Shown here piece by piece: positions 12,207 to 63,894 of a stretch of 64,000 bases of DNA (positions are counted from its first letter, which is position 1; the number at the start of each line of letters is the position of its first letter). Origin of the DNA: an uncultured Thermoleophilia bacterium (GTDB taxonomy: Bacteria; Actinomycetota; Thermoleophilia; UBA2241); contig CAWFDC010000011.1 in the NCBI GenBank assembly GCA_963814545.1, positions 208,928-272,927 on the forward strand. The letters run 5' to 3'. The notes under the pieces were generated by a model, which ran no database searches, was not told the DNA's origin, and saw only the letters and a program-made list of their open reading frames with translations. The translations under genes and the position numbers were made by a program.

Positions 12207-13374
12207 CTACCGACTGGATTGTCGACTGTCAACACTCAGCCGTCGAACGGACGATCCGCGACGGGCGGGAGCGGGTGGATGTACCCCTGGCGCGGGGCAG
12301 TGTGACGACTCCCGACGCCGGACGCCAAAGAGGCAGGCCGGGCGGCGGCGCACGCTGCGCTGCGCCGCCCGGCCTGCCTGTTGGCGCAGTCTGATGCTCA
12401 TCTTGCCCGACTTGATGACGCCCCACATCCACTCCGTCATCGCCTGCTGCTCGGCGATCAGGTCGTACCGGGTCTCGCCGCTCACGACGAGGCCGCCACA
12501 CTCGTGGTCGACGGTAAGGACCTTGTCCCGGCTCAGGATGCCGAGGACCGCCTCGGTGAGCTGCGGCAGCATCGGCTGCTTGCGGACGGCCTCCTCTTCC
12601 TCACGGTCGAGCGTGTAGGCGAGGACGTTCTTGCCGATGATGCCGTACATCTTGTCAGGCCAGACGCCGCTTCTGAGGTAGGGCCTGAGTCCCCTGAAGT
12701 CGTTCACGTACGTGACGCCAGGCTGATCCATGAGGATCGACGACGAGCCCCAGCCGCCACTGAACAGCGCCTCGGTGCCCGGGTCGTCGGGGTCCGTGTC
12801 CTGGTCCCTCAGCTGCTCGGTGATAGACACGTCGCCGCCGTCCTCCACGAGGGAGGCGAACACCGCCGGCGTCGCGTCCGAGAGCTCGAGATCGGTGACA
12901 AGGCCGGTGGCCTTGCCGACCGACTCGGCGCGCTCGAGGACGGTCTCCCACTCCTCGATCTCGCCGCTTGCCGGACTCGGGCCCATCGCGACCCAGTCGT
13001 TCCATGTCGTCATGCCCGTCGAGAGCCGTCCCTCCGGCCGCGACGTCAGTGACTGCCGTGTCGTCGGACAGAGAATCGTCAGGGTCGCCGAGCGACCTCG
13101 TGTCGGTGTTGCCCTCGCCGCCCCACGGTATGTCGTCGATCAGCAGCGAGCCGCCGTTGAGTTGCCGGCCGACCTCGAGGTGGTCGACGGCCATGCCGTC
13201 ACCGATGAAGAGCATCACGTTGTCGACGCCCTCGAGCGGCGACGATTCCGGGACCGGGCCGGCAGCAGCCGCCTTGCCCTACCCGGCGGCCAGCCCGACG
13301 GCGGTGAGCAGTGCGAGGGAGGTGACCACCGCCACGACGACCCCGAGACCGGAACGCTGATGATGCCCGCTCAT
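12207..13374 (-). pseudogene. phoA: Alkaline phosphatase (PhoA family) decayed: in-frame TAG, frameshift, active-site Ser replaced, C-terminus truncated
   Basis: The signal peptide MSGHHQRSGLGVVVAVVTSLALLTAVGLAAG is followed immediately by TAG (~13279). Next come NVMLFIGDGMAVDH (the E. coli IILLIGDGMG region) and VTDVAAGGTAL where E. coli has VTDSAASATAW, so the Ser nucleophile is Val. A frame switch near 13015 leads to GKATGLVTDLELSDATPAVFASLVE and GDVSITEQLRD, which match PhoA. The ORF ends soon after LTVDHECGG. Confidence 0.6.
12217..12235. promoter_or_regulatory. Operator-like site B: GATTGTCGACTGTCAACAC
   Basis: Tandem TGTCGAC and TGTCAAC heptads lie about 210 bp upstream of the PHP gene B start and directly after the phoA remnant. 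Confidence 0.5.
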
Positions 13375-13578: not shown

Positions 13579-14079
13579 TCAGGCCGAGGCCGCCTCCTTG
13601 TCCATCTTGTCGACCTTCAGGTCGACGGCGAGCACGTGCGGGTTCTGGCAGAAGGCGATGCACTGGGGCTCGCCGTCGCAGAGGTCGCACTTGAAGGCGA
13701 CCTGCCTGTCGGGGTGCTCGTGGATGACCCCGGTGGGGCAGACCTCGTAGCACTCGCCGCAGTTCGTGCACTTCGCCTCGTCGACCGTGAGCACGTAGCC
13801 CTTGACGACCTCGCCGTGCTTCGCCTTGCCCGGGTAGTCGCCCTTGACGGTGACCGTGATCTCCTTCGTCACGATGGCGTCCTCGGGGCAGGCCTCCTGG
13901 CACTTGGCGCAGGCGGTCTGCAGGCAGGTGTGACCGCGGATCTTGCCGGTCGTCGGGTTGACCTCGGAGAACAGGCGGGCGACCGAGGGCCGGTAGGCGC
14001 CCTCGTGCTGGGCCGAGCAGGCGAGCTCGCACATGTGGCAGCCGGTGCACTTCTTCGAGCTGATCATCACGTGAGGCAT
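13579..14079 (-). CDS. Poly-[4Fe-4S] ferredoxin-like protein, probable electron-transfer partner of the oxidoreductase
   Basis: Start MPHVMISSKK has RBS GAAGGGAAG. Four Cys clusters are present: CTGCHMCELAC, CAKCQEACP, CTNCGECYEVCP and CDLCDGEPQCIAFC. It lies immediately downstream of the oxidoreductase. Confidence 0.75.
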   Translation of the reverse strand: MPHVMISSKKCTGCHMCELACSAQHEGAYRPSVARLFSEVNPTTGKIRGHTCLQTACAKCQEACPEDAIVTKEITVTVKGDYPGKAKHGEVVKGYVLTVDEAKCTNCGECYEVCPTGVIHEHPDRQVAFKCDLCDGEPQCIAFCQNPHVLAVDLKVDKMDKEAASA

Positions 14080-14113
14080 GTGATCTTCCCTTCGTCTCTC
14101 GTGGACCGGCCGG

Positions 14114-15913
14114 CTAGAGGCGCACGTCGATGCCGAGCTCTGAGAGCTTGGCCTCTGAGGGGACGCCGTGCTCGTCCCAGCCGCGGAGGGTGTAGTACTC
14201 CTGGAGGACCCGGGCGAACTCGTCGCGATCGATGACCTGACCGGCGGCTGCGCCGTCCGAGAACGGCTGCACGTGCATGCGCTCCGGCACAGTGTCATCG
14301 GCCGACGTGAGCCCCTCACGCAGGTTGAACAGGCGCCCGAGGTTCCAGATGCGCTCACCGATCTGCATCAGCTCGTCGCGCGAGAACTCCCGGGCCCAGA
14401 GATGCCGCATGAGGATGCCGATCTGCTCGAGGTCGATGGCCCAGAAGTCGCACCAGATGCCGCTGAACTTGAGCGCGAAGAAGTTCTGGCCCCCAGCCTC
14501 GGCGTTGACGACCCAATCGGCCTTGCCCTCGAAAGTGGCGGCCGGCATCGAGCCCTCGACGATCTCCTGCCCGACGGGGAACGACCGCATGTGGCAGGCG
14601 CCTCGATCGGAGGTCGCGTAGCTGAGGGCCATGCCGAAGGCGCCGCGCGGGTCGTAGCCCGGCACCTCCATGTTCTTGACCTGCATGGCGAGCTCGGGGT
14701 GGCCGTACTTCGCGGCCAGGGCTTTGGCGCCCAGCGCGAGCTCGGCGCCGATGCCCTCGCGACCTGCCATCAGCTCCGCGGCTTCCAGGTACCCCCGGGT
14801 GTCACCAAAGGCGAGACCGAACTCGGCGTAGCCCTTCTCGCAGAGGTCCATGGCGAGACCCACGACCGAGCCCGAGGAGATGGTGTCCATGCCGAGCTCG
14901 TCACAGAGCTCGTTGAACTTCATCAGGGCGTCGATGTCGTCGATGCCGCAGTTCGCGCCGCAGAGGGCGATGGTCTCGTACTCGGGGCCCTCGCCGCGCA
15001 CCTCCTTGCCGGCCCACTTCGTGGCGTGGAAGTTGCGACAGGCGATCGCGCACTGGTAGCAGGCCCGCTTCTTGGCGCGGATCTTCTGGAACGACTCCGA
15101 GTTGATCTTGTCCGCGCCCTCGAAGACGCCGGCCGAGAAGTTGCGCGTCGGCAGAGCGCCGCCGCCGTTGATCACGTCGACCAGCACCGGCGTGCCCTCT
15201 TCGTGCGCCCACAGGTTGGTGTCGGTGAGGATGTAGTCCTCGTGCATCCTGTACATCAGGTCGAGGAACGCCTTGGCGTCGCCCACCGGCACCGAGCCCG
15301 TGCCGCGGATGGCCACGGCCTTCACGTTCTTCATGCCCATGAGCGCGCCGGCCCCGCCGCGGCCGGCCTTGTGGTATTGGTCGGTCGACAGGCAGGCCCA
15401 GGGGATCCTGCTCTCACCGGCGGGTCCGATCGACAGCACCTTGGCGTCGCGGTCCAGGTCGTTGCGCAACGCCTCCTCGACCGCGGACGTCATCATGCCG
15501 AGATAGCGCCCTGCCGGCCGGAACTCGACCCCGTCGTCGCAGATCCAGACCACCGTGGGCTCAAGCGCCTCGCCCGTCAGGATGATGATGTCGTAGCCGG
15601 CGAACTTCATCTCGGGGGCGAAGGATCCGCCCACGTAGGAGTCAAGGATCGTCCCGGTCGTCGGGCTCTTGCAGCCCACCACGAGGCGCGACGACGTGGT
15701 CACGTTGGTGCCGGCGAACGGCCCAGTGACGAGCAGCAGGGGGTTGTCGGGTGATGTGGGATCAAGCCCGGGAGCGACCTCGTCCCAGAGGTAGCGAAAG
15801 AGGAGTCCCTTCCCGCCCAGGTAGAGTCGTGCCCAGTCCATGTTCAGCGGCTCGACGGCGGCGCTCTGGGCACACAGGTCGATCCTGAGCACCTTGCCGG
15901 TGTAGAAGTCCAC
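14114..15913 (-). CDS. aor: Tungsten/molybdopterin aldehyde:ferredoxin oxidoreductase (AOR family)
   Basis: The approximately 600-aa ORF has the AOR N-terminal domain (FYTGKVLRIDL...YLGGKGLLFRYL) and the family-typical Cys-rich stretch KRACYQCAIACRNFHA. It ends SEAKLSELGIDVRL. A GTG start at ~15913 follows GGAAGGAG. Confidence 0.75.
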   Translation of the reverse strand: MDFYTGKVLRIDLCAQSAAVEPLNMDWARLYLGGKGLLFRYLWDEVAPGLDPTSPDNPLLLVTGPFAGTNVTTSSRLVVGCKSPTTGTILDSYVGGSFAPEMKFAGYDIIILTGEALEPTVVWICDDGVEFRPAGRYLGMMTSAVEEALRNDLDRDAKVLSIGPAGESRIPWACLSTDQYHKAGRGGAGALMGMKNVKAVAIRGTGSVPVGDAKAFLDLMYRMHEDYILTDTNLWAHEEGTPVLVDVINGGGALPTRNFSAGVFEGADKINSESFQKIRAKKRACYQCAIACRNFHATKWAGKEVRGEGPEYETIALCGANCGIDDIDALMKFNELCDELGMDTISSGSVVGLAMDLCEKGYAEFGLAFGDTRGYLEAAELMAGREGIGAELALGAKALAAKYGHPELAMQVKNMEVPGYDPRGAFGMALSYATSDRGACHMRSFPVGQEIVEGSMPAATFEGKADWVVNAEAGGQNFFALKFSGIWCDFWAIDLEQIGILMRHLWAREFSRDELMQIGERIWNLGRLFNLREGLTSADDTVPERMHVQPFSDGAAAGQVIDRDEFARVLQEYYTLRGWDEHGVPSEAKLSELGIDVRL

Positions 15914-15978
15914 GACTGACACGCTCCTTCCGATGGGTGGTCGTGACGCGACGCACTGAGCCGGCAGCGCCAGCGGTC

Positions 15979-17120
<1,142 letters not shown>

Positions 17121-20164: not shown

Positions 20165-20184
20165 CAAGTGTCGACAGTCAACGG
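20165..20184. promoter_or_regulatory. Operator-like site C: CAAGTGTCGACAGTCAACGG
   Basis: It lies 80-100 bp upstream of the potD start, in the only sizeable intergenic gap of the pot operon region. Confidence 0.5.
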
Positions 20185-23482: not shown

Positions 23483-24337
23483 CTAGCCGACTCTAGGGTA
23501 GAACAGCGGCGCGCCGCGAGCACCGACGTCCCCCACGAGAAGGTGCCACTCGCCGACGTTCGCTATCGCCAGGCGATCGAGCTCGGAGCCGACGAACGCG
23601 GCGTTCGTCGGCGTGTTGAGCTTGAGCCCTCGGGGATCGTCGGCGACGACGACGAGATCGCCGTCCGGGGCGAGACGGTAGACGCGGTCCGGGCGATAAC
23701 ACGCGATGTAGAGCGCGCCCTCGTCGTCGAAGGCGATGCCGTCGGGCACGTGGGCGTCCGGGAGCTCGACGACCAGCGCCGGCTCGCCGGCCGCGCCGTC
23801 CGCACCGACCGGCACGCGCCATACGCCCGGCAGGCTGGACTCGACGACGTAGAGCCAGCGCCCATCGGCGCTGAAGCAGCAGCCGTTCGGGTAACGCCGG
23901 AGGGCGGCCGTCCAGACGACCGTCTCCCCGCCGGGCGCGATGCGGTAGATCGCGCCGTTCTGCTCCTCCCAATCGGAGGAGTCCGTGACGTACAGGTTGC
24001 CGGCGGCGTCGAAGGCGCAGTAGTTCGGCTCGATCATGTCGCGCTCCACGCTCCCCGCAGAGTAGACCTCCACGTCGCCGGACCGCGGGTCCACGCGCAG
24101 CACCTCGGCACGTCCTTCATCGCAGGCGTAGACCGTGCCGGCTGCATCGACCGCGAGGCCGAGGATGCCGCCGCCGGTGTCGGCCACCTGGGCGACCTCG
24201 CCGTCGAGCGTGACGGCGTAGATCTGCCCCGCCTCGCCGCCGGCGTAGATGCGACCGGTCGCCGGGTCCCAGGCGAGGTCCTCGGGGTGATCCAGGTCCT
24301 CGGTCAGGATCTCGAACTCGCCGAGCATGTCGGTCAT
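23483..24337 (-). CDS. SMP-30/gluconolactonase/LRE-like beta-propeller protein
   Basis: It shows repeated blade motifs (GRIYAGG, GTVYACD, GNLYVTD, RWLYVVE, ALYIACY). The 284-aa ORF is intact. Confidence 0.6.
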   Translation of the reverse strand: MTDMLGEFEILTEDLDHPEDLAWDPATGRIYAGGEAGQIYAVTLDGEVAQVADTGGGILGLAVDAAGTVYACDEGRAEVLRVDPRSGDVEVYSAGSVERDMIEPNYCAFDAAGNLYVTDSSDWEEQNGAIYRIAPGGETVVWTAALRRYPNGCCFSADGRWLYVVESSLPGVWRVPVGADGAAGEPALVVELPDAHVPDGIAFDDEGALYIACYRPDRVYRLAPDGDLVVVADDPRGLKLNTPTNAAFVGSELDRLAIANVGEWHLLVGDVGARGAPLFYPRVG

Positions 24338-24367: not shown

Positions 24368-24826
24368 CTACTCCTCACCCCTGAGCTTCTTCATCGCCGC
24401 CTTGACGGCGTCGCTGTCGACCGCCAGCTCGACGAAGCCGATGCGCTCGTCGTAGATCGCCGGGTCGACCTGCTCGCGCAGGTCGTCCTCGAAGATGTGC
24501 ACCACGGGGAGTCCCAACTGGACCCCTGCCAATGGACCGACGTAACTCGGGTCGCCTTCGGTGACCGTCTCGGCGACCATCTCGAGTCCCTCGAGATCGG
24601 CCGCCCCGAGCACCACCACCAGGTCGTCAGTGCCGTACCGCTCCACCGTCGACTTGATGCGACCCTGGTTCTCTGGGTCCATCGCTCCCGCCGCCGTTCA
24701 GACGAAGCACTCCGTCTCGATCATGACGACGTCGGCGCCCGCCGTGCGGACACAGTCGGCGATCGCCTCTCCCGAGACGCTGTCGCGCTCGCCCAGGGCG
24801 ATCACCTTCTTGCCCTTGAGATCCAT
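24368..24826 (-). CDS. grdA: Glycine/sarcosine/betaine reductase complex selenoprotein A (GrdA); in-frame TGA at 24698..24700 read as selenocysteine
   Basis: From ATG ~24826 (RBS GGAGG): MDLKGKKVIALGERDSVSGEAIADCVRTAGADVVMIETECFV-TGA-TAAGAMDPENQGRIKSTVERYGTDDLVVVLGAAD...GPLAGVQLGLPVVHIFEDD...KLRGEE. This is colinear with GrdA (CFV-U-TAAGAMD). The ORF track shows only the post-UGA part (24368..24682). Confidence 0.75.
24661..24679 (-). other. Candidate bacterial SECIS hairpin for grdA: GACCC-AGAGAACCA-GGGUC on the mRNA
   Basis: A stem-loop begins about 19 nt 3' of the UGA codon, the position expected for a SelB-binding element. Confidence 0.4.
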
Positions 24827-25150
24827 CACTCACCTCCCTCCACCAGCCTGCCGACAGCGGCCTCCACCTCGGCCGCCGAAGGGTTCCCGCTCAGACGCTC
24901 GACTTCGACGCCGTCGCGGTAGAGCACGAACGTGGGCATGGCGATCGACCTTCAGGTCGCGAGCGATCTGACGGTTCTCGGCGGCGTTCACCTTGACCAG
25001 CGTGAACCTGCCCTCGCACTTCTTCTCGAGCTTCTCGACCGCCGGCATGAGCGCCAGGCACGGCACGCAGCGCGGCCCCCAGAAGTCGACCATCACGTTG
25101 CCCGACGCGACGAGCGCGGGGAACGAATCCACGGTTGCGTCGACTGCCAT
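24826..25150 (-). CDS. trxA: Thioredoxin (TrxA), with one frameshift near 24945
   Basis: The N-terminus MAVDATVDSFPALVASGNVMVDFWGPRCVPCLALMPAVEKL carries the WGxxCxxC active site and runs to ...IARDLKV. The C-terminus SIAMPTFVLYRDGVEVERLSGNPSAAEVEAAVGRLVEGGE is in the +1 frame. The stop overlaps the grdA ATG (TGATG). Confidence 0.7.
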
Positions 25151-26467
25151 TCACACCTCCACGATCACGGAGACCGCATCCCACATCTGGGTCATGCGGC
25201 CGAGGAACAGACTGCCCTTCGCCATCAGCATCGTCGACGTCAGCTCGCCACGCGCGAAGCGATCCAGGGCATGCGGGATCCAGGGCACCGCTGAGGCGAT
25301 ATGGCCCTGGGTCGGCGAGAAGCCGGGCAGGCCGCGACGACGACAGAAGTCGTTCATCTCGTCGCGGCCCAGCTCGCCGCGCGTCACGGCGAGGGCCGCC
25401 AGCAGCTTGTAGTTGCGCTCCGGCACGTCGTAGCCGCCGGCCGGCTCGGTGATCTCCGGGTTGTGGAGCTCCGTCGAGTACACGTCGATGTCGGCCACCT
25501 TGCGCCCGAGCTTGTCGAGCGGCACGCCGACGACCTCCTTGAGCAGCGACTGCTGCGAGGAGTCGCTGCCGATACGGTGCTGACCCACGGCGTCGAGCCG
25601 CAACCGGGGGCGTCGCCGCCGGCCGGCCCCACGCAGGACGGCCATGCCGGCGAGCACGTCCTCGAGCACGGGCACGCCCCGGTCGAGAGTGCCCTTGAAC
25701 TTCATGCCGAGCTTGGCCAGCGACCCGCCGGCGACCACCACGACGCGCTCGAAGGTGCCGGACTCGACGAGCGCGCCGGCCATGATGAGAGCGTGCACCG
25801 GGCTGGTGCAGAAGGCCTTCACGTCGCTGCCGTTGGCGTTCACGAGGCCGCAGCACTCGGCGATCGCCTTGGCGAGCGCGCCGCCGCCGCGGTTGTAGCG
25901 GTCTCCCACCGCCTCTTCGCCGGCGCCGATCGCGTACCGGATCGACTCGGGGTCGACACCCGAGTGGGCCAGCATGGCGCGCAGCGCGTGCACCCCGCCC
26001 GCCTTGCAGGAGAGGTTCTCGAGCAGGGCGTGGGCGCTGAGCGCCGCGTCCTCGTCGTGGGCGCGCACGAACGCGCCCACGACCTCGCCACCGTCGAAGA
26101 GCGTCAGATCGCCTCTGTCGGGGCGTGCCTCCTCGCCCAGGCGCACGAGGTCGAAGAGGTCGACCTCGTCCATCAACTCGTAGAAGGAGCGCTGGTCGGC
26201 GATGTCGCCGTACGGTCCGGCCGCCGGGGCGGAACCGTCGATCCCCTCCCACCAGGGCCGCTCGCGGCTCCACAGCTCCTCGGGCCTGAGGTTGCCGATG
26301 AACGCCTGGTTCGGGGCGTAGCCGCAGGCCTGCTCGAACGTTCGCAGCTTGTCCTGCACGGTCGCGAACTTCTCGGCCTCGCGCGCCGGCTTGGAGCCGA
26401 AGCGCACCAGGTCCGGCACGTGGTCCAACACGAACGACGCGGCTAGGATCCCGGCACGCCGCGTCAC
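25151..26467 (-). CDS. Putative glycine reductase complex protein C subunit (GrdC/GrdD-like, thiolase/KAS-like fold)
   Basis: A continuous 438-aa ORF sits between grdB and trxA. The thiolase-like segment DVKAFCTSPVHALIMAGALVESGTFERVVVVAGGS suggests protein C. Its stop abuts the trxA ATG. Assignment is by operon context and motif only. Confidence 0.45.
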   Translation of the reverse strand: MTRRAGILAASFVLDHVPDLVRFGSKPAREAEKFATVQDKLRTFEQACGYAPNQAFIGNLRPEELWSRERPWWEGIDGSAPAAGPYGDIADQRSFYELMDEVDLFDLVRLGEEARPDRGDLTLFDGGEVVGAFVRAHDEDAALSAHALLENLSCKAGGVHALRAMLAHSGVDPESIRYAIGAGEEAVGDRYNRGGGALAKAIAECCGLVNANGSDVKAFCTSPVHALIMAGALVESGTFERVVVVAGGSLAKLGMKFKGTLDRGVPVLEDVLAGMAVLRGAGRRRRPRLRLDAVGQHRIGSDSSQQSLLKEVVGVPLDKLGRKVADIDVYSTELHNPEITEPAGGYDVPERNYKLLAALAVTRGELGRDEMNDFCRRRGLPGFSPTQGHIASAVPWIPHALDRFARGELTSTMLMAKGSLFLGRMTQMWDAVSVIVEV

Positions 26468-26507
26468 GGTCCCACTCGCAGGTCCTCGCTCGCGCGGCCT
26501 CCGTCAC

Positions 26508-27788
26508 TCACTCTCGTTCCTCCCATACGGTCCGCGGCTGTACGTCCGTCTCGAGCATGGAGACGGCGCGCTCCACGATGCGGCGCCGCAGCACGCGCTC
26601 GTCGGCGGCGCCGAGACCGGGCTCGCCCACCGGGTTCGTGACGGCGACCCCGCGCAGCGTTCGGTTCGTCCCGACCATGGTCGCGATCGTCGGGAGCGCC
26701 GTGATGAACACCGTCGGTATCCCCGCACGCTCGATCTCCTTGCTCAGCGTTGCCCCGCAACGCGTGCCCGTCCCTCAGGTGCCCGTGAGGATCACCGCCT
26801 GGATGCCCGCGTCGCGCAGGCGCAGCGCGATCTCCTGTCCGAACTTCGCCGCCGTGGCCACCGGGGTCGAGTTGCCGGTCGTGGTGTAGAGCGTCTCGTG
26901 CAGCGCACCGATCCGTCCCTCGCCCAGCAGGCTGCGGACGGCGTCGAGCGGCACGAGACGGTCGGGGTCGGCGTTGGCGATGCTCGTGTCGTAGCCGCCG
27001 TGCACCGTCTCCCAGCTCTCCGGCTCGAGGCCGGCCAGGCCGTCGAGAGGGTAGGCGAACCACGCGTGCGCGCGGTTCGATTCGAGGCGGTCCGGGTTGC
27101 CCTTCGGCACCAGACCGGACTCGGTGACCAAGGCCACGGTCGCCGCGGCGACGTCCGCGAGCGGCGGCGGCGGCGGGACGTCGTCGAACGCCGCCGTCAC
27201 CTCGGTACGGACGTCCCCGGAGAGCTTGGCGAGCAGCAGTTCGACCGCGCGCTGTGCGCCGGTGAGCTCGGCGCGCTCGTTGCGCCGCAGGCCGCGGGGG
27301 AGATAGCCCTCCTCGTCGGGCGGCCCCAGAGTCTCTCCGGCCGCCAGCCGGCGCGCCAGGACCGCCATCCGCGGCAGCGCGTCGCGCATGCCCTTCACCG
27401 TGATGTCGGTCGGCACGATGTAGGCGGCGCCCTCGGCGGCGAGCACTCCGGGGCTCTCCGGATGCATGCCGCAGACCGCGGGTACGCCGCCGCGCGCCGC
27501 CTCGCGCGCGAGCGCGCCGCAGGCGTAGCCGTAACGGCCCGAACCGAACGACGGCCCGCAGACGAGCACGTCGGGCTGCTCCTCGCCGAGCCAGCGCAGG
27601 AGCTGCGCGAGCGCGTCTTCTTCGTGCTCCCCGAAATAGTCATCGCCGCACACGAGGGTGACGGCGACGTCGAGACCGAGACCCTTCCCGGGCCCAACGG
27701 CGCCCTCCCGGCGCACCGGCTCCGTGTCCGCAGCCTCCTCGCCGCCGAGACCGGCGAAGAACTGGTTCACGTAGTGCACGACCTTCAC
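26508..27788 (-). CDS. grdB: Glycine reductase selenoprotein B (GrdB); in-frame TGA at 26775..26777 read as selenocysteine
   Basis: A GTG start overlaps the grdE stop (GTGA). MKVVHYVNQFFAGLGGEEAAD is the canonical GrdB N-terminus. The frame continues across TGA: ...AVILTGT-U-GTGTRCGATLSKEIERAGIPTVFITALPTIATMVGTNR...WEERE. The pieces appear as two ORFs in the track (26775..27926 and 26508..26711). Confidence 0.75.
26747..26763 (-). other. Candidate bacterial SECIS hairpin for grdB: GCGUUGC-GGG-GCAACGC
   Basis: A perfect 7-bp stem with a G-rich apical loop starts 11 nt 3' of the UGA, matching bacterial SECIS spacing. Confidence 0.5.
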
Positions 27789-29065
27789 CACGACACCGCC
27801 CGCAGGTGCATGTCCCCCATCTGGCAGAGCGCCCCCAGGTAGGTGACCGTCGGCACCGGGCCGGCTTCGTCGGCCGGGCGGCCAGCCCAGGTGCGGCGCC
27901 CGCCGACCACACGCTGCGGGCGCCACTCCGGCACCAGTTCCTCCTCGTTGCCGACGCTTACGATGCAGTCCGCCTCGGGCACGTGGTCGGTGAGACCGCC
28001 GTTCGTCTCGGCGAAGAGCACGACGGTACGGATGCCGAGGCGTTCGCAGGCACGGCAGGTGAGCACGGTGTCAGTGTGCGAGTTGCCCGTCTGGAAGGTC
28101 GTCAGAACGGCCGCCTCGGCTCCGACCTGACGGGCGAGCTTGGCGGCCATCAGCGCCGAGCGCTCCTTGTCGAAGGCGGAGGGAAGGTAGCCGAGCGTGA
28201 GGATCACGCCGCAGAAGCACAGGTCGACTCCGTGTCGGCGCAGCAGTTCGCGCAGCAGGCTGCTGCGCTGGAAGAAGTAGGTGGGATCGCGCACTCCGGC
28301 CCAGTCGTACTGCCCCGCGGTGAGCGCGCCGTCGAGCACCTCGCGCGCGTCGAGGAGCGTCGGCACCAGGCCGTTGAGAGGCCGACCGTAGAGGTACGTG
28401 TCGACGAGCGGGCCCTCTGAGGCCACCTGCAGGATGACGCACACTCGCGGCAGGTCGCCGGAGACGGGCGGTAGGTCGAGAAGATCGACGCGGTCGGGCG
28501 GCGCGTCCAGCGTGCTCGCCGCCAGGTCGCGAGCGACGCGCAGGGTCACCCGTCGGAGCGCGGCGTCCGCTTCGGCCGGCGGCGCCGCGGGGTCGCACTC
28601 ATAACTCAACACGACGTTCTGGGTGGCCGACCAGCGGGTGAGCTCGGCAGCGGGACCTGCCATGTCGACGAACGAGTCGCCATCGGGATAGACGTCGAGA
28701 CTCGTCACATCGTAGGTGCCGTGGAAGTCGGCAGTCGCCAGAACGGCGACCCCCTCGAGGCGGTGGGTCCCCCCGGCGCCCGCCACCGTCAGTGCGCCGA
28801 GCGCACCGGGGAAGGTCGTCGCGGGCTCGTCCGTCTTGACCGTCGGCTCGACGGCGTCGAGGACGTTGAGCACACGCACGGACTCGCCCGGCCGCACGAG
28901 CGTGACGCTCATCCCGAGCAGGCCTGGCTCACCGGCCGCCGCCTCCTCGAGGCCGGCCGTATCTACGGTCAGGACGCCGTCGCGCCACGAGGTCTCGGCG
29001 CCCGCCACCACGTCGTTCACCGCGAACGCGGCGAGCTCCAACGGCGGTGCGGACGTGGTGGGCAT
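27785..29065 (-). CDS. grdE: Glycine reductase protein B proprotein (GrdE-like, alpha/beta subunit precursor)
   Basis: This 426-aa ORF is translationally coupled to grdB. It has the upstream position typical of grdE in grd operons, and RBS GGAGG before the ATG at ~29065. Called mainly by context. Confidence 0.5.
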   Translation of the reverse strand: MPTTSAPPLELAAFAVNDVVAGAETSWRDGVLTVDTAGLEEAAAGEPGLLGMSVTLVRPGESVRVLNVLDAVEPTVKTDEPATTFPGALGALTVAGAGGTHRLEGVAVLATADFHGTYDVTSLDVYPDGDSFVDMAGPAAELTRWSATQNVVLSYECDPAAPPAEADAALRRVTLRVARDLAASTLDAPPDRVDLLDLPPVSGDLPRVCVILQVASEGPLVDTYLYGRPLNGLVPTLLDAREVLDGALTAGQYDWAGVRDPTYFFQRSSLLRELLRRHGVDLCFCGVILTLGYLPSAFDKERSALMAAKLARQVGAEAAVLTTFQTGNSHTDTVLTCRACERLGIRTVVLFAETNGGLTDHVPEADCIVSVGNEEELVPEWRPQRVVGGRRTWAGRPADEAGPVPTVTYLGALCQMGDMHLRAVSW

Positions 29066-29086: not shown

Positions 29087-29110
29087 GCGTCGACTGTCGA
29101 CAGTCTACGG
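29087..29110. promoter_or_regulatory. Operator-like site D: perfect 14-bp palindrome GACTGTCGACAGTC (29092..29105) flanked by GTCGAC/GTCTAC
   Basis: It lies 27-40 bp upstream of the grdE ATG, in the 62-bp gap between ltaE and grdE. Confidence 0.55.
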
Positions 29111-29127
29111 GCGGCCTGCCGCCGCGG

Positions 29128-30174
29128 TCAAGCTGACGCCAGACGCGCCATCGTCGCCGTCATGATCGCCGCAGCCTCCTCGATGTCGGCGTCGTCGACG
29201 TCGAGGTGCGTGACGAACCGCAGGCCGTAGGGATTGGGGTCCACCAGCAGGCCCGCCGGCGCCGCGGCCTCAGCGACTTGATCGGCGGTCAGACCCGCCG
29301 GCCGTGGGTCGGCGAGCACCATGTTCGTGTGGACGCGCGCGACGTCGACGGCGAGCCCCGGCACGGCGGCCAGTCGCTCGGCAAGACAACGCGCACGGCG
29401 ATGGTCGTCCGCGAGACGCGCGATGTTGTGCTCGAGAGCATGGAGACCGCCGGCCGCCACGATGCCTACCTGGCGCATCGCGCCGCCGAACTGCAGCCGA
29501 TAACGCACTGCGCGCCTCACGAGACGCTCGCTCCCGAGCAGGAGCGAGCCGACTGGAGCCCCTAGCCCTTTCGAGAGGCAGGCGTTCAACGAGTCGAACG
29601 GCGCCGCCAGCTCGCGCAGGGACGACCCGGTCGCGACGTGGGCGTTGAAGATGCGCGCGCCGTCGAGATGGAGCGCCAGCCCGTGGCGGTCGCAGAACGC
29701 CCGCATCTCCAGGACCTTCTCCTGCGGGTACACGACACCACCGGCGGCATTGTGGGTGTTCTCGAGGCTGACGACGCGCGTCACCGAGTCGTCGGCCTCC
29801 TCGTCGGTGCGCACGTAGAGCTCGAGTTCGCCGGAGTCGAGTGTGCCGTCCGGCGAGTCGAATTGCCGCAGCTGCAGCCCCGACAGCGCCGCCGCGGCTC
29901 CCATCTCCCACTGCACGATGTGCGACCGGGCGTGGATGAACACCTCGTCGCCGGCATCGGCCTGCACGCGCAGCGCGACCTGGTTGCTCATCGTCCCGGT
30001 CGGGAAGAAGAGCGCGGCCTCCTTGCCGAACAGCTCCGCGGCGCGCTCCTGGAGGGCGTTGACGCTCGGGTCCTCACCAGACTCATCGTCGCCCACCGGA
30101 GCTGCCGCCATCACCCGGCGCATCTCCTCGTCGGGACACGTCTTCGTGTCGCTGCGCAAGTCGATGGTCTTCAT
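29128..30174 (-). CDS. ltaE: Low-specificity L-threonine aldolase (PLP-dependent)
   Basis: Start MKTIDLRSDTKTCPDEEMRRVMAAAPVGDDESGEDPSVNALQERAAELFGKEAALFFPTGTMSNQVAL (RBS GGAGG) matches the threonine aldolase N-terminus. The later segment HLDGARIFNA also fits. Confidence 0.75.
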   Translation of the reverse strand: MKTIDLRSDTKTCPDEEMRRVMAAAPVGDDESGEDPSVNALQERAAELFGKEAALFFPTGTMSNQVALRVQADAGDEVFIHARSHIVQWEMGAAAALSGLQLRQFDSPDGTLDSGELELYVRTDEEADDSVTRVVSLENTHNAAGGVVYPQEKVLEMRAFCDRHGLALHLDGARIFNAHVATGSSLRELAAPFDSLNACLSKGLGAPVGSLLLGSERLVRRAVRYRLQFGGAMRQVGIVAAGGLHALEHNIARLADDHRRARCLAERLAAVPGLAVDVARVHTNMVLADPRPAGLTADQVAEAAAPAGLLVDPNPYGLRFVTHLDVDDADIEEAAAIMTATMARLASA

Positions 30175-30242: not shown

Positions 30243-30264
30243 TACTGTTGACTGTCGACACTCG
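30243..30264. promoter_or_regulatory. Operator-like site E: TACTGTTGACTGTCGACACTCG
   Basis: It lies 70-90 bp upstream of the ltaE ATG. Confidence 0.5.
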
Positions 30265-31537: not shown

Positions 31538-32206
31538 CTACGGGCGATCGGGCAAGGCGTCGATGTAGGTGGCGACGAGGTCGCGAGCCTTGTCGACGTG
31601 CGCCTCGAAGCGACAGGCGGCGAGCGAAGTATCGCCGCTCTCGACGGCCTCCATGAGCGGCTCGTGCTCGACGGCGACGTCGTCCATCGATTGGTACAGG
31701 TACTCATCGAGCTTCATGAGGTTCTTGAGGACCGGCACATGACGGACGTAGACCTCGTGGAGGCGGCGGTTGCCGGTCAGCCGGCACAGCCCCTCGTGGA
31801 AGGCGAGATCGGCTCGCGACACCGCCGCCACGTCAGCGCTGTCGGCGGCTGCGAGCAAACGATCGAGCAGCTTGCGCAGCGAGCGCGCATCGGAGGCCCG
31901 TCCGCGCGCGGTCACCTGTCGCGCGGCGCGAGCCTCGAGGGCGGCGCGCAGGTCGTAGATCTCACGCACGTCGACGCCGGTGAGCCGCACCACGAACGTG
32001 CCTCGATGCGGCTCGTCACGCACCAGGCCCTCGGCGCGCAGCATCTTGAAGGCCTCGCGAACGGGGCCCCGGCTCACCCCGAGGTGCTGAGCGATCCCGG
32101 CCTCGACGAGCCGCTCGCCCTGGTGGAAGCCCCCGGTCAGGATCTCCTCGCGGATGCGGTCGGCGACGTCTTCGGCGAGGAGTTTTCTGGTTTGGAGAGG
32201 TCGCAT
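31538..32206 (-). CDS. GntR-family transcriptional regulator (FadR/FCD subfamily)
   Basis: The N-terminal wHTH is LLAEDVADRIREEILTGGFHQGERLVEAGIAQHLGVSRGPVREAFKMLRAEGLV. The C-terminal FCD-like helical domain carries His residues. Confidence 0.8.
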   Translation of the reverse strand: MRPLQTRKLLAEDVADRIREEILTGGFHQGERLVEAGIAQHLGVSRGPVREAFKMLRAEGLVRDEPHRGTFVVRLTGVDVREIYDLRAALEARAARQVTARGRASDARSLRKLLDRLLAAADSADVAAVSRADLAFHEGLCRLTGNRRLHEVYVRHVPVLKNLMKLDEYLYQSMDDVAVEHEPLMEAVESGDTSLAACRFEAHVDKARDLVATYIDALPDRP

Positions 32207-32307: not shown

Positions 32308-32321
32308 GACTGTCAACAGTC
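32308..32321. promoter_or_regulatory. Operator-like site F: GACTGTCAACAGTC (near-perfect palindrome) in the gntR/aminotransferase divergent promoter
   Basis: It lies about 100 bp upstream of the gntR ATG and about 76 bp upstream of the aminotransferase ATG. A partial half-site TTGTCAGC lies at 32283. Confidence 0.55.
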
Positions 32322-39334: not shown

Positions 39335-39353
39335 ACTGTCGACTGTCAACAAC
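39335..39353. promoter_or_regulatory. Operator-like site G: GACTGTCGACTGTCAACAA
   Basis: It lies 48-66 bp upstream of the decarboxylase ATG. Confidence 0.5.
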
Positions 39354-39443: not shown

Positions 39444-39462
39444 ACTGTTGACCGTCAACGGC
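39444..39462. promoter_or_regulatory. Operator-like site H: GACTGTTGACCGTCAACGG
   Basis: It lies 20-38 bp upstream of the larA-like ATG at 39482. Confidence 0.5.
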
Positions 39463-44136: not shown

Positions 44137-44592
44137 TCAGCGTGCGGTCGCCCGCAGCGCAGCGAGCAACGCCGCCGGCTTGAGGTCGTCGTCGCCCTCG
44201 CCCATCCACACGACCTTGCCGGCGCGATCGACGATGACGGCGAGCGGCGGCGCCTGGCCGGCGACGGCGCGAGCGGCCCCGTAGCCGGCCGCGGTGGAGC
44301 CGTCGTCGCGGACGATGGGGAACGGCAGACCCTCGACGGCCGCCGCGAAGGCCTCGGGGTCGGCGGAGTCGCCGCCGGTCACTCCGACGAGCTGGCCGCG
44401 CAGGCCCCAGAAGGCGGACGACTGCCGCGCCAGCGCCTTGAGCTGCGCCGGCGCCGCGGCCGAGTCGGCGGAGAAGAAGACCAGCACCGGGAACCAGTCG
44501 CCCCGGTACTCGTGCAGGTCGATGACGGTGCCGTCGAGCGCGGCGAGCGCGAGGGTCGGCGCTTGACGGCCGACGCCGAAGTCGTAGCCCAC
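44137..44592 (-). CDS. Thioredoxin-fold AhpC/TSA-like protein lacking the peroxidatic Cys
   Basis: The 151-aa protein has GDWFPVLVFFSADSAAAPAQL where peroxiredoxins have FYPxDFTxVCTTE. No Cys is present. Confidence 0.5.
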   Translation of the reverse strand: MGYDFGVGRQAPTLALAALDGTVIDLHEYRGDWFPVLVFFSADSAAAPAQLKALARQSSAFWGLRGQLVGVTGGDSADPEAFAAAVEGLPFPIVRDDGSTAAGYGAARAVAGQAPPLAVIVDRAGKVVWMGEGDDDLKPAALLAALRATAR

Positions 44593-44949
44593 GAGGACCT
44601 CCTGCCGGCGCGCAGCCGGCCTCCGGATTGCGCCCGTGAGTCTATCAAAGGCCGTCGCCCCTCAGCGGACGATCACCTCGGCGTGCAGCGACTCCCGCTC
44701 CGCATGGAGCGGGCACGCGCAGGAGTACGCACCGGGTCTCTCGAACGTGCGCCCGAAGGACTCGCCGCTTCGCAGGGTGCCGCTGCCGAAGGTCTGGGTC
44801 GTCGCGGAGGACGCGCCGGCACCCCTCGGTCGAAGTCACCATGTGCGGAACGCCGCGATCGTTCGCCCACGTGGCGGTCGTCCCCTTCTCGGCGCCGGGG
44901 GCGGGCGGCGCTCCCGCGCCGCCCGCCCCCGCCAGGCGTCCTGCCGTCC

Positions 44950-45495
44950 TCAGAACGTCCTGTAGTACTGCTTCGTCGCCGCGCACACAGGGCACTTGTC
45001 GGGCAGGTCGCCGATGACGGTGTGCCCGCAGATCACGCACACGCTGACCGGCTGCTCGTCGACGTCCTTGCCCTCGAGGGCGCGCCCGCGCGCCTGCTCG
45101 TACATCCACTTGTGATCCATCTCGGCCTTGCGCGCGAACCTGAGGCTCCGTTTCGCCTGAGCCTGCTCCTGCGTGACCGCGATCTCCTCGTAGGCCGGAT
45201 ACATCTCGTCGACCTCGAACGACTCGCCGTCGAACGCTGCCTTCAGGTTGTCCGCGGTGCCGCCGATGCCCCCCATCACGCGCAGGTGGTTGCGCGCGTG
45301 CCGGGTCTCGGCGAACGAGATGGCGCGGAACAGCTTCGCGATCTGCGGCAGGCCCTCGTCCTCGGCCTGCTCGGCGAAGACGAGGTACTTCTCCGCCGCC
45401 TGGCTCTCGCCGGCGAAGGCCGCGGCCAGGCTTTCGCGCGTCATGGCCTTGAGGCCCTCGGGCTTGGGAAGGCGCTTCTCGAACTCGGCGTCCAT
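44950..45495 (-). CDS. rbr: Rubrerythrin
   Basis: MDAEFEKRL...AFAGESQAAEKY...ETRHARNH (diiron ExxH motifs) and C-terminal rubredoxin-like CVICGHTV...CPVCAA. The ATG overlaps the upstream rbr stop (TGATG). Confidence 0.85.
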   Translation of the reverse strand: MDAEFEKRLPKPEGLKAMTRESLAAAFAGESQAAEKYLVFAEQAEDEGLPQIAKLFRAISFAETRHARNHLRVMGGIGGTADNLKAAFDGESFEVDEMYPAYEEIAVTQEQAQAKRSLRFARKAEMDHKWMYEQARGRALEGKDVDEQPVSVCVICGHTVIGDLPDKCPVCAATKQYYRTF

Positions 45496-46040
45496 CAGAA
45501 CTCCCTGAAGTAGGAGCCGTCGGTGTAGCACTGCGAGCAGTAGCCGGGGCGCTTGCCGATCACCGTGTGACCGCAGATGGGGCAGACGTAGACGACGCTC
45601 TCGTCGAAGTCCTTCTTGCCCTCGACGCCCTTCATCGTGCTGTCGTAGATGTCCTGGTGGTCCATCTCCGCCTTGAGGGCGAAGCGGATCGTCAGCTGCG
45701 CCGACTCGTTGCCCTGCAGCTTGGCGACGGCGGCGTACGCCGGGTACATCTCATCGATCTCGAAGGTCTCGCCGCCCCAGGCGGCCTTGAGGTTCTCCGC
45801 CGTCGTGCCGATCTGGCCGAGCACGCTGAGGTGGTTGCGGGCGTGCGTGCTCTCGGCGTACGCGACCGCCTCGAAGAGCCGCGCCACGTTGGGGTAGCCC
45901 TCTTCGCGGGCGACGGCGGCGAACGCGAGGTACTTCTGCGAGGCCTGGCTCTCGCCGGCGAGCGCCGCCTCGATGTTGCCCCGCGTCATCGCGCCGCGCT
46001 CCTCGGGCGGCGGGGGGGTGTTGAGGTAGGGGGCTTCCAT
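45495..46040 (-). CDS. rbr: Rubrerythrin (second tandem paralog)
   Basis: MEAPYLNTPPPPEERGAMTRGNIEAALAGESQASQKY...ESTHARNH...CPICGHTV...CSQC. RBS AGGAGG. Confidence 0.85.
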   Translation of the reverse strand: MEAPYLNTPPPPEERGAMTRGNIEAALAGESQASQKYLAFAAVAREEGYPNVARLFEAVAYAESTHARNHLSVLGQIGTTAENLKAAWGGETFEIDEMYPAYAAVAKLQGNESAQLTIRFALKAEMDHQDIYDSTMKGVEGKKDFDESVVYVCPICGHTVIGKRPGYCSQCYTDGSYFREF

Positions 46041-46178
46041 CGTCCTGTGCTCCTCCTTTCGAGGGGGCACGGCCGTCAGCGCGCGACAGACCCGGCCCCG
46101 CCGTAGTCGTTCACGCAGGTGCGGGCACCCATCGTACCAGCGGTCTTACGGTGCCCGGCCGGCGTCGCGACGCCGGCC

Positions 46179-54887: not shown

Positions 54888-56087
54888 ATGACTGACGACA
54901 CTGCGGGTTGGGGGCTGCCGTTCACCAGGGAGGAGTACGCGGCACGCCTCGAGCGCACGCGCGAGGAGATGGCGCGTAAGGGCGTCGAGCTGCTGTACGT
55001 GACCTCGCCGCCCAACCTCTACTACCTGCTCGGCCACCAGTCGGTCTGGTGTGACGGTCGCAACGTGACCGGGCTGGCCGTCCCGCTTGATGCCGCCGTC
55101 AAGCCGGTCATGTTCGACACCTGGGACCATGCCCCCGGCTGGTCACCGGTCGTCGAGGACGGCGTCACCTACGGCGAGGAGGGCTTCTACTACCCGGAGG
55201 GTCCCGAGGTCGTGGCGGCGACGCTGCGCGGCCGGGGGTTGCTCAAGGGGCGCGTCGGGCTCGAGTGGTGGAGCTGGGCGCCGGGCGGGCCGGCCCTGCA
55301 GGAGCTGGCCGGCCGGCTGGCCGGCGCCGGCGCCGGCGAGGTCGTCGACGGCTCGTGGATCGTCGACCACGCGCGCCTCGTGAAGTCGCCGAAGGAGACC
55401 GAGTACACGCGCAAGGCGCTCGAGATCGCCGACGCCGCCTACGAGGTCCTCGCCGCGACCCTCGCGCCGGGCATGACGGAGAAGGAGATCATGGGTCTCC
55501 TGTACTACGAGTGCGCGAAGCGTGGCGGCGACGAGCCCGGCATCCGCATGATGGTGCGCACCGGGCCCAACACCTTCAACTTCCACCACCCCGCGACCGA
55601 GCGGCGCATCGAGCAGGGCGAGTTGCTGATGATCGACATGTCGGCGGCCTACCACCACTACCACGGCAACACGGCACGGGCGCTCTCGCTGGGCGAGAAC
55701 CCGTTCTGGGCGGAGAAGCTGGCGAAGCTCGCCGCGGCACGCGACGAGACCGTGGCCCTGCTGCGGCCGGGCGATCCGACGCAGAGGCTGCAGGAGCTGA
55801 TGGACGCGGCGGTCGACGCCGCCGGAGGCCTGCGCGAGTACGTCTGGTGGGTCGGCGGCTATGTGCTCGGCGCGACGATGCCGCCGGACTGGGTCGGCCA
55901 CGTGTACCTGAACGACGAGGAGGGCTTCGAGAAGGGCGTCTTCGACCCCGGCTTCGTGGCCAACTGGGAGGTCCAGATCTGGGACATCCCGCGTAAGGAG
56001 GGTGTCGGCGTCATCGACACGATGATCGCGACCGAGACCGGGGTCGAGATCCCGGCCCGGTTCCCGGCGACGCTCACGGTGGTCTGA
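54888..56087 (+). CDS. M24-family metallopeptidase (Xaa-Pro aminopeptidase/creatinase-like)
   Basis: Creatinase N-domain followed by the pita-bread domain (LMIDMSAAYHHYHGNTAR; HGVGH-like VGGYVLG). The 399-aa ORF is intact. Confidence 0.65.
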   Translation: MTDDTAGWGLPFTREEYAARLERTREEMARKGVELLYVTSPPNLYYLLGHQSVWCDGRNVTGLAVPLDAAVKPVMFDTWDHAPGWSPVVEDGVTYGEEGFYYPEGPEVVAATLRGRGLLKGRVGLEWWSWAPGGPALQELAGRLAGAGAGEVVDGSWIVDHARLVKSPKETEYTRKALEIADAAYEVLAATLAPGMTEKEIMGLLYYECAKRGGDEPGIRMMVRTGPNTFNFHHPATERRIEQGELLMIDMSAAYHHYHGNTARALSLGENPFWAEKLAKLAAARDETVALLRPGDPTQRLQELMDAAVDAAGGLREYVWWVGGYVLGATMPPDWVGHVYLNDEEGFEKGVFDPGFVANWEVQIWDIPRKEGVGVIDTMIATETGVEIPARFPATLTVV

Positions 56088-63351: not shown

Positions 63352-63894
63352 TCAGCCCTCTTCGTCGTCTTCGAACAGCGCCAGGTACTCCCCGCAGCCC
63401 TCACGCTCGAGGTCTTCGCGTGGTATGAAGCGAAGGGCGGCGGAGTTCATACAGTAGCGCTGTCTCGTCGGCGCGGGTCCGTCGCTGAAGACGTGGCCGA
63501 GATGCGAATCGGCGACGGCGCTGCGAACTTCGACTCGCGGGAGCACCAGCTTCCAGTCCCTCCGGGTGACGACGGCCGAGGGGTCGATGGGGCGGGTGAA
63601 GCTCGGCCACCCCGTCCCCGAGTCGTACTTGTCCTTCGAACTGAACAACGGTCGACCGGAGACGACGTCGACGTACAGGCCGTCGCGGTGCTCGTCCCAG
63701 TACTCGTTCTCGAAGGCCGGCTCGGTGCCCTCGCGCTGCGTCACCTCGAACTGGCGCCACGTGAGCCGGGCGCGGAGCTCGGTCTCGTCCTTGATGAAGG
63801 TGGTCGGCCCGGCGGGTCCTGCCCCGGCGCGGGTCGAGGGTGTGTCTTCGGTCACGGGTCCACTCCTTGATGGCACGGCAGGCGACACGTCCAT
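63352..63894 (-). CDS. msrB: Peptide-methionine (R)-S-oxide reductase MsrB
   Basis: [17 protein letters not shown] and RYCMNSAAL are MsrB signature motifs. The two CxxC zinc pairs are absent except a C-terminal C. The N-terminal extension makes the start uncertain. Confidence 0.8.

Follow-up and report, generated by a model that had tools for sequence, protein, structure and literature searches.

The window analysed here, a stretch of 64,000 nucleotides from an uncultured Thermoleophilia bacterium, carries on its minus strand, between positions 24368 and 29065, five closely packed genes that on sequence grounds constitute an operon of the glycine/sarcosine/betaine reductase (Grd) family, encoding an E-like subunit, a selenoprotein B, the protein C subunit GrdC, a thioredoxin and a selenoprotein A. 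Two of them, grdB and grdA, contain in-frame TGA codons which, on strong comparative evidence (conservation and selenocysteine (Sec)/cysteine pairs), are genuine selenocysteine codons. In canonical GrdE, made as a proprotein, cleavage at a cysteine creates the glycine-binding pyruvoyl group, and two cysteines are conserved at the cleavage site (PMC10838667, PMC9908766). With modest confidence, the present operon is taken to encode a non-pyruvoyl, GrdD-less variant of the family, in which the E subunit lacks that cysteine pair, the B subunit carries the motif UxxGxxC (U, Sec) and Sec is inserted at both TGAs. Its substrate and end product probably differ from those of glycine reductase, because three hallmarks of the true enzyme are missing. 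An earlier note on this DNA had named it a glycine reductase selenoprotein operon. A Grd-family operon with two Sec codons was indeed found, whereas the specific label did not hold, in view of the E subunit without the cysteine pair, the GrdB that scores below the cut-off and reads UxxGxxC, and the grdD gene that was not found.

Searches with Pfam and NCBIfam profiles detected all core Grd families in the operon (Table 1), and the gene identities agree with the order proposed earlier, namely grdE-like, grdB, a protein-C-like gene (grdC), trxA and grdA. Also as proposed, a single protein C subunit is visible, and it is GrdC. Of the two overlaps between stop and start codons that had been described, the GTGA joining grdE-like to grdB is present as such, and the TGATG joining trxA to grdA exists only if the trxA frame is repaired. 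The warning that open reading frame (ORF) callers would easily miss both selenoproteins proved justified, the public gene calls having cut them into 338 + 67 and 42 + 104 amino acids.

Both TGAs lie exactly where the earlier note had placed them. In the readthrough translations, residues 2-423 of the 426 of GrdB align with positions 1-431 of the TIGR01918 profile (433.8 bits, cut-off 65.45) and residues 3-151 of the 152 of GrdA with positions 1-149 of NF040748 (201 bits, cut-off 130), so that curated models match end to end and the frames after the TGAs are homologous to the GrdA and GrdB C-termini. Among the related loci assembled for comparison (given L numbers below), both TGAs are kept in every one of about 48 from Actinomycetota, which excludes chance or sequencing error. 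The Sec column of GrdB holds TGA in actinobacterial and other loci and TGC or TGT in L092-L095, and grdA keeps its TGA even in operons whose GrdB uses a Cys codon. The G+C content at third codon positions (GC3) is 0.90 downstream of the grdB TGA. Reassignment of UGA was considered and dropped: TGA is the ordinary stop of grdE, grdB, grdC and trxA, and therefore the codon is not reassigned in this genome.

Gene callers end both reading frames at the TGAs, as would be expected if the codons were erroneous or real stops and translation did not continue into the frames behind them. That explanation would also suit the missing decoding machinery, since no selA, selB, selD or trxB was present among the approximately 50 ORFs of the window scanned with Pfam, and ARAGORN found no tRNA-Sec in the window nor in 60 related loci. 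It is nevertheless extremely improbable: TGA occupies the same column in all loci, the sequence behind it is conserved and matched by full-length models, homologues exist with Cys codons at the site, a conserved hairpin follows the grdB TGA, and the use of TGA as normal stop by four genes of the operon speaks against reassignment. A 95-nt ARAGORN call of "tRNA-Ala(GGC)" at 55040-55134, which has the length of a tRNA-Sec, lies inside a Pfam-supported creatinase/M24 peptidase ORF (54888-56087) and is almost certainly a false positive, and a Pfam "SelR" match was discarded as Sec machinery, the gene being MsrB. When the window was scanned for in-frame TGAs flanked on both sides by coding signal, grdB came out together with two ordinary gene junctions; grdA, with its short upstream ORF, was not picked up. 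The peroxiredoxin, rubrerythrin and MsrB genes of the window (44140-46070, 63355-63894) are free of in-frame TGAs and hence do not encode selenoproteins here.

A hairpin resembling a selenocysteine insertion sequence (SECIS) had been reported downstream of each TGA. Both hairpins are present at the positions reported; conservation with covariation was found for that of grdB and did not extend to that of grdA. Folding of single sequences, over the 40-50 nt after each TGA, gave z-scores of -1.65 and -1.24, by which neither hairpin stands out, such scores being uninformative at 70% G+C. Comparison of sequences was more telling. The grdB hairpin, GCG(U/C)UGC-GGG-GCA(A/G)(C/U)GC, occurs in all 30 distinct sequences compared, and 97% of its cells are paired; one pair is U-A in 19 sequences and C-G in 11, and another alternates between G-C and G-U. 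None of 500 shuffles equalled it, and slid controls were paired in 26-60% of the cells. Of three lineages with a Cys codon in grdB, one has lost the hairpin, one has a weakened form and one retains it. Its loop lies 18-20 nt past the UGA. In the bSECISearch model of bacterial SECIS elements the apical loop is situated about 16-37 nt downstream of the UGA. The grdA hairpin is common only to the nearest relatives; over the clade 66% of its cells are paired, with zero covariation, neither RNAalifold nor an exhaustive stem search gave a clade-wide consensus structure for grdA, and a weak, partly invariant stem appears within subclades only. The comparisons thus support a SECIS for grdB and leave the grdA hairpin, which lacks such support, as a candidate. 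An Rfam search of the whole window at gathering thresholds gave no match, that is, neither a glycine riboswitch nor a curated SECIS family.

One departure from glycine reductase is located in the E subunit. In all Firmicutes and Syntrophus loci the canonical site reads SGN-C-VSA-C-DKN, with its first cysteine at residue 242 in L084 and L064, while the window E reads AGQ-Y253-DWA-G257-VRD, so that Tyr253 and Gly257 occupy the positions of the two cysteines; the GN-C-VSA-C pair of glycine reductase proper is therefore not present. In an alignment of 43 E sequences of the actinobacterial clade with 23 canonical ones, the first position is Tyr in 42 of the 43 and Cys in 23/23, and the second is Gly, Ala or Ser in all 43 and again Cys in all 23. 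No alternative cysteine is universally conserved among the 43 aligned sequences, and the window E subunit is predicted to be unable to form a Cys-derived pyruvoyl group. E-like subunits of this kind have precedents, for FarE (fluoroacetate) and the betaine subunit GrdI are reported to be without both processing cysteines and not to be proproteins (PMC10838667). The window E resembles the betaine type in having no cysteine pair and an aromatic residue at the position of Cys242, Tyr here and Phe in the bona fide betaine-type GrdI of L067, which was identified through its partner GrdH (602 bits on the N-terminal 350 amino acids) and an adjacent BCCT betaine transporter. With the NCBIfam models of GrdG and FarE it reaches 184.6 and 129.9 bits, short of the respective cut-offs of 780 and 675.

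A second feature of the actinobacterial E sequences is found at residues ~325-330 (TGNSHTD, 28076-28093), where a class-specific Ser329-His330 follows an invariant Gly-Asn. Ser329 is present in 42/43 and His330 in 41/43 of them, and canonical E has Pro-Asp there; the equivalent of Ser329 is not present in the Tyr-type E sequences of Desulfobaccales. It is conceivable, from the likeness of the string G-N-S to the canonical G-N-C cleavage site, that a Ser-based processing site has been relocated to this region of E.

Selenoprotein B departs from the known enzymes as well. Its motif is U-GTG-TRC (UxxGxxC) and not the canonical U-GTC-TRC (UxxCxxC), and its scores fall below all the substrate-specific cut-offs: 408.8 vs 602.2 bits for the glycine model TIGR01917, 433 vs 800 for the sarcosine model GrdF and 363 vs 775 for the betaine model GrdH (NF040795), so that a sarcosine or betaine reductase is not recognized either. 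The sarcosine-type motif TTGTGT is not matched, the window GrdB reading TTGNST. From the published glycine-GrdB motif (Nobu et al.) the elements GPSFGSGRYG, VHGG and RLVPLD fail, and a filter built on that motif would leave out the actinobacterial clade. UxxGxxC and Tyr-type E occur together in Actinomycetota, in Desulfobaccales and in one spirochaete metagenome-assembled genome (MAG). Sequence searches of the PDB returned no relative of E or B. In one actinobacterial lineage (L092, 6001-9495; L093, 4971-8465) GrdB has a true Cys codon, TGC, in the motif CGTGSRSG; grdA keeps its TGA there and the grdB hairpin is gone.

The third hallmark concerns protein C, which in glycine reductase comprises GrdC and GrdD. 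In the window only GrdC was found. Searches with GrdD by tblastn gave nothing in the window (E-values up to 10), in the 10 kb on either side of the operon in actinobacterial loci, or at the Desulfobaccales, Syntrophus and Chloroflexi loci, while in Firmicutes grdD lies directly 3' of grdC in all 15 loci where the region is covered. The FabH-like cysteine of GrdC, in SDVKAFC, is conserved. Relative to Firmicutes, the actinobacterial protein has an internal deletion of ~34 amino acids and is missing the C-terminal tail (~30 residues), which is confined to the Firmicutes GrdC and missing in lineages without grdD. A PDB sequence search with GrdC gave only a weak KAS III match.

A course of reaction can be outlined by analogy with GrdHI and FarEB. 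The selenolate of B would attack directly the alpha-carbon of a substrate X-CH2-COO-, with no Schiff base, and X would leave. The carboxymethyl group would then move to the Sec of GrdA, whose CxxU cysteine would release it as an acetyl thioester on the FabH-like cysteine of GrdC, and thioredoxin would re-reduce GrdA. Without the PlsX-like GrdD, acetate or acetyl-CoA would probably be released, acetyl phosphate being doubtful.

A putative operator of GntR type, the perfect palindrome ACTGTCGACAGT, overlaps the -10 hexamer of the promoter-like site upstream of the grdE-like gene. With two mismatches or fewer allowed, 10 copies of the motif were counted in the window, where 2.5 would be expected, and none of 100 shuffles reached 10. 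Sites lie at 29093-29104, 30244-30262, 32309-32320, 20167-20178, 39335-39346, 39444-39455 and 12218-12236, and copies precede the Grd-like operon, the aldolase gene (30244-30262), the divergent GntR/aminotransferase region, a PotD-type ABC transporter operon and a decarboxylase/amine-oxidase operon. The sites are kept at equivalent intergenic positions in L004. The GntR/FCD regulator encoded at 31538-32206 likely binds this palindrome. Since ACTGTCGACAGT recurs before such operons, the Grd-like operon is placed in a regulon of genes for amine and amino-acid catabolism.

A broader proposal, held tentatively and given somewhat less than an even chance, is that soil Thermoleophilia and Gaiellales possess an uncharacterised class of Sec-dependent Grd-type enzyme, with neither pyruvoyl group nor GrdD, which would cleave an X-CH2-COO- compound that is N-substituted or activated in some other way (a methylated glycine, for instance) and not glycine, deliver the acetyl group through the FabH-like GrdC as acetyl-CoA or acetate, and serve a GntR-controlled amine-catabolic regulon. 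Several observations weigh against the non-pyruvoyl reading of the operon. The gene for a threonine-aldolase-like enzyme, which would form glycine, is directly upstream under the same operator and points to glycine as the physiological substrate; GrdB is 46-50% identical to glycine GrdB and 38% to betaine GrdH, and it retains the glycine-type element TxGNxTxV; no betaine-type transporter (BCCT/OpuD) is nearby; grdD could be elsewhere in the genome; the genes for Sec synthesis and insertion were not seen in the window; and trxA has one extra base near 24946 (GGTCGATCGCC vs GGTC-ATCGCC; 24940-24950), which shifts its frame after residue 68.

The first of these observations would be expected from an ordinary glycine reductase that turns aldolase-made glycine into an acetyl unit and ammonia, the carbonyl group and GrdD being supplied otherwise or elsewhere. 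With all core Grd families present, GrdB nearest to glycine GrdB and the GntG-family aldolase gene adjacent and co-regulated, such an enzyme would be at home here, and the aldehyde ferredoxin oxidoreductase (AFOR) genes in the window and beside the homologues of L052 would suit a balanced pathway in which threonine is split into glycine and acetaldehyde. It is kept as a serious rival, though one of lower probability than the non-pyruvoyl reading: both pyruvoyl-forming cysteines are replaced (42/43 and 43/43) and no other conserved cysteine is offered, the cut-off of the glycine GrdB equivalog is missed (408.8 vs 602.2), the motif is UxxGxxC, grdD was not found in the window or the relatives' loci and the GrdC tail is missing, and the aldolase linkage is confined to the closest relatives, L003-L009.

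The frameshift in trxA, overlooked in the earlier note as were the indels of grdC, raises the question of whether the operon is functional in this organism. In the raw frame Pfam Thioredoxin covers residues 5-69 only; once the frame is repaired, NF047697 and TIGR01068 match residues 8-100. In grdC an insertion at ~25634 and a deletion at ~25605, 29 nt apart, compensate each other and leave 10 residues out of frame over the conserved LVGP segment, where the conserved AVLVGPAGDDAP becomes AVLRGAGRRRRP. If these were real mutations the operon would be decaying and the system nonfunctional, and it can be said in favour of this that the 1-bp insertion is unique among the relatives examined, being missing from L003, L004, L090 and L091, which align across the site, with an intact trx of 107 amino acids called in L086-L089. 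Likewise, look-ups of the exact products, the frameshifted thioredoxin and the window GrdC, found no record in any other assembly. Of two metagenome pattern scans for the trxA insertion one gave no hits and the other only relatives of 83% identity without it. Against decay, neighbouring genes of the window are broken as well relative to L004 (20225-20974, 17207-18049, 16229-17809, 37991-39287), including a 244-amino-acid gene in four pieces and three frames, a permease in two frames, a permease fused to an ATPase, and an Orn/Arg decarboxylase in two overlapping ORFs. The related long-read contig L085 is full of split genes, short-read contigs from the same strain agree with the window to 99.8-99.9% and without gaps in the overlaps (trxA lies outside them), and grdE, grdB and grdA are intact with GC3 staying high. 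Decay is for these reasons judged improbable, and errors of assembly are the likely source of the indels.

Table 1. Coordinates of the Grd-like operon, its decoding signals and the neighbouring features in the window
Feature	Position	Strand	Evidence or remark
grdE-like (426 aa), substrate-specific B-component subunit	27785-29065	-	PF09338, 284.8 bits vs cut-off 22.2; stop overlaps grdB start (GTGA)
grdB-family selenoprotein B (426 aa with Sec), motif GT-U-GTG-TRC	26508-27788	-	TIGR01918, 433.8 bits; PF07355
GrdB selenocysteine codon, in-frame TGA	26775-26777	-	TGA column conservation; TGC/TGT in Cys homologues L092-L095
SECIS-type hairpin GCGUUGC-GGG-GCAACGC, starting 11 nt past the grdB TGA	26747-26763	-	97% of cells paired, covarying pair
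grdC, protein C beta subunit, thiolase/FabH-like (438 aa)	25151-26467	-	NF040746, 513.9 bits vs cut-off 450
trxA, thioredoxin, redox motif CVPC	24826-25150	-	NF047697 and TIGR01068 in repaired frame; 1-bp insertion near 24946-24947
grdA, selenoprotein A (152 aa with Sec), motif CFVU	24368-24826	-	NF040748, 201 bits vs cut-off 130; PF04723, 1-147 of 147
GrdA selenocysteine codon, in-frame TGA	24698-24700	-	TGA in every locus holding grdA
Candidate hairpin GAUGGACCC / GGGUC-G-CAUC, 3' of the grdA TGA, unsupported as SECIS	24656-24683	-	Fold -12.9 kcal/mol; earlier core 24661-24679
Promoter-like site TTGACC-18 nt-TAGACT upstream of grdE-like	29102-29131	-	Consensus scan, 2 sites vs 0.4 expected; hexamers conserved in 5 relatives
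Putative GntR-type operator, perfect palindrome ACTGTCGACAGT overlapping the -10 hexamer	29093-29104		Invariant in 6 aligned sequences, flanks vary
GntG-family pyridoxal-phosphate aldolase, threonine-aldolase-like, glycine-forming	29128-30174	-	NF041359, 372 bits vs 230; start set by L004
GntR/FCD regulator	31538-32206	-	98% identical to the GntR + FCD gene of L004; operator 32309-32320 in the divergent intergenic region
SMP-30/gluconolactonase/LRE-like (SGL) gene, starting 30 nt past grdA	23483-24337	-	PF08450; frequent operon partner

The E-B-C-trx-A order was found by tblastn in ~48 loci of Actinomycetota species-representative MAGs, including Thermoleophilia, Gaiellales and Gaiellaceae, and these operons form a distinct lineage that is widespread among the uncultured Actinomycetota of soil. 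Nearest to the window among species representatives are MAGs of uncultured Thermoleophilia, and two ENA metagenome contigs are 92-94% identical to the window over 21 kb. One relative carries a generic NCBI product name, so that Sec-containing Grd genes of Actinomycetota MAGs are already in the databases. Papers linking glycine reductase with Thermoleophilia or Gaiellales, or dealing with Grd operons of Actinobacteriota, were not found, and neither was any description in the literature of the combination of Tyr-type E, UxxGxxC and no GrdD.

In approximately 17-21 of the 48 loci the operon is accompanied by genes for a class-III aminotransferase, a PotD-like binding protein, an FAD amine oxidase, GntR, a short-chain dehydrogenase/reductase and an SMP-30/gluconolactonase-like protein. 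Homologues of the last of these, the SGL gene, stand next to or near the operon in ~17 actinobacterial loci, in the Cys-type L092 and in the spirochaete MAG locus L052, where AFOR, SGL, an M20 peptidase, an MttB-family methyltransferase and an amidohydrolase are found beside Tyr-type E and B genes. The MttB-family gene (quaternary-amine/trimethylamine methyltransferase; L052, 5279-6760) is situated two genes upstream of the Tyr-type E, and from this neighbour methylated amines may feed the Tyr-type enzyme. In the same locus AFOR (21-1958) adjoins the SGL and Tyr-type E/B genes, and in the window a tungsten-type AFOR with a 4Fe-4S ferredoxin occurs at 13582-16057, ~7.5 kb beyond the operon; these neighbours are a hint that aldehyde oxidation is coupled to the reductase. 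In the Gaiellaceae loci an IclR regulator is encoded upstream, with a gene for cytochrome oxidase assembly (CtaG) in the vicinity. Loci of a Gaiellaceae-like subclade (L025, L027, L029, L034, L037-L039, L043, L045, L047, L049-L051) have a tRNA-Gly(TCC) gene 1-6 kb downstream of grdA, and in a largely overlapping set IclR precedes the operon in 13 loci and CtaG is near it in 12.

Enzymes of the glycine reductase type are regarded as rare and as a trait of anaerobes, and a survey calls Grd "a rare catabolic enzyme" of anaerobic specialists that ferment amino acids (PMC9751293). The present findings place a Grd-related operon, with Sec kept in both selenoproteins, in dozens of uncultured soil Actinomycetota species; missing from it are the cofactor site and the subunit by which the textbook mechanism and its ATP-yielding step are defined. 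If the uncharacterised-class reading is true, the enzyme would serve organisms not known for Stickland-type metabolism. Should the substrate differ from glycine, automatic labels such as "glycine reductase" or "betaine reductase" in soil metagenomes would be misleading, a new reductive C-X cleavage would await discovery, and selenium-dependent metabolism would be entrenched in abundant soil lineages.

Compared with the GrdABCDE system of Clostridium sticklandii and Eubacterium acidaminophilum (EC 1.21.4.2), the window operon shares the CxxU of GrdA, a selenoprotein B with 46-50% identity, a PF09338 E subunit, GrdC, a dedicated CVPC thioredoxin and two in-frame TGAs. It differs in that the window E has no Cys242/Cys246 pair, B reads UxxGxxC and not UxxCxxC, no grdD or trxB is nearby in the window and no glycine riboswitch is present (no Rfam match); the gene order is E-B-C-trx-A and not the canonical trx-E-A-B-C-D, and the organism is a soil actinobacterium of high G+C content.

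Betaine reductase GrdHI (E. acidaminophilum; L067, 12028-14424) also has an aromatic residue at the Cys242 position of its E-like subunit and uses GrdA, protein C and thioredoxin. Because GrdI is reported to be without both processing cysteines (PMC10838667), the chemistry of GrdHI needs no Schiff base. GrdH keeps UxxCxxC, however, and the window B is only 38% identical to it (363 bits vs the cut-off of 775); the window E is 32% identical to GrdI and equally 32% to GrdE, and the window context has no BCCT/OpuD transporter. In the fluoroacetate system, FarE is reported to be without the two processing cysteines and FarB to have a degenerate CxxC after Sec (PMC10838667), and FarEB borrows GrdA and protein C. 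The window operon and FarEB of Cloacibacillus porcorum MFA1 are alike in the E subunit without processing cysteines and in the degenerate post-Sec motif of B. They differ in that the FarE model gives 129.9 bits for the window E against a cut-off of 675, that the window B retains one motif cysteine, and that the context is amine and amino-acid catabolism and not dehalorespiration.

The Tyr-type operons of Desulfobaccales (L066, L074) belong to another phylum, have DASS and SSF symporters as neighbours and possess a second B/E pair in which B is without both cysteines (U-GSG-TRS). In this second pair (L066, 2285-4900; L074, near 5319) no Cys follows Sec, as in the description of FarB, and in L066 its E is also of the Tyr type. 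In other respects these operons resemble that of the window: with L052 left out of the comparison, their E is the closest outside the Actinomycetota-like clade (40% identity), and they have the same E-B-C-trx-A order, an E with N-Y, a B with U-GTG-TRC, and no grdD.

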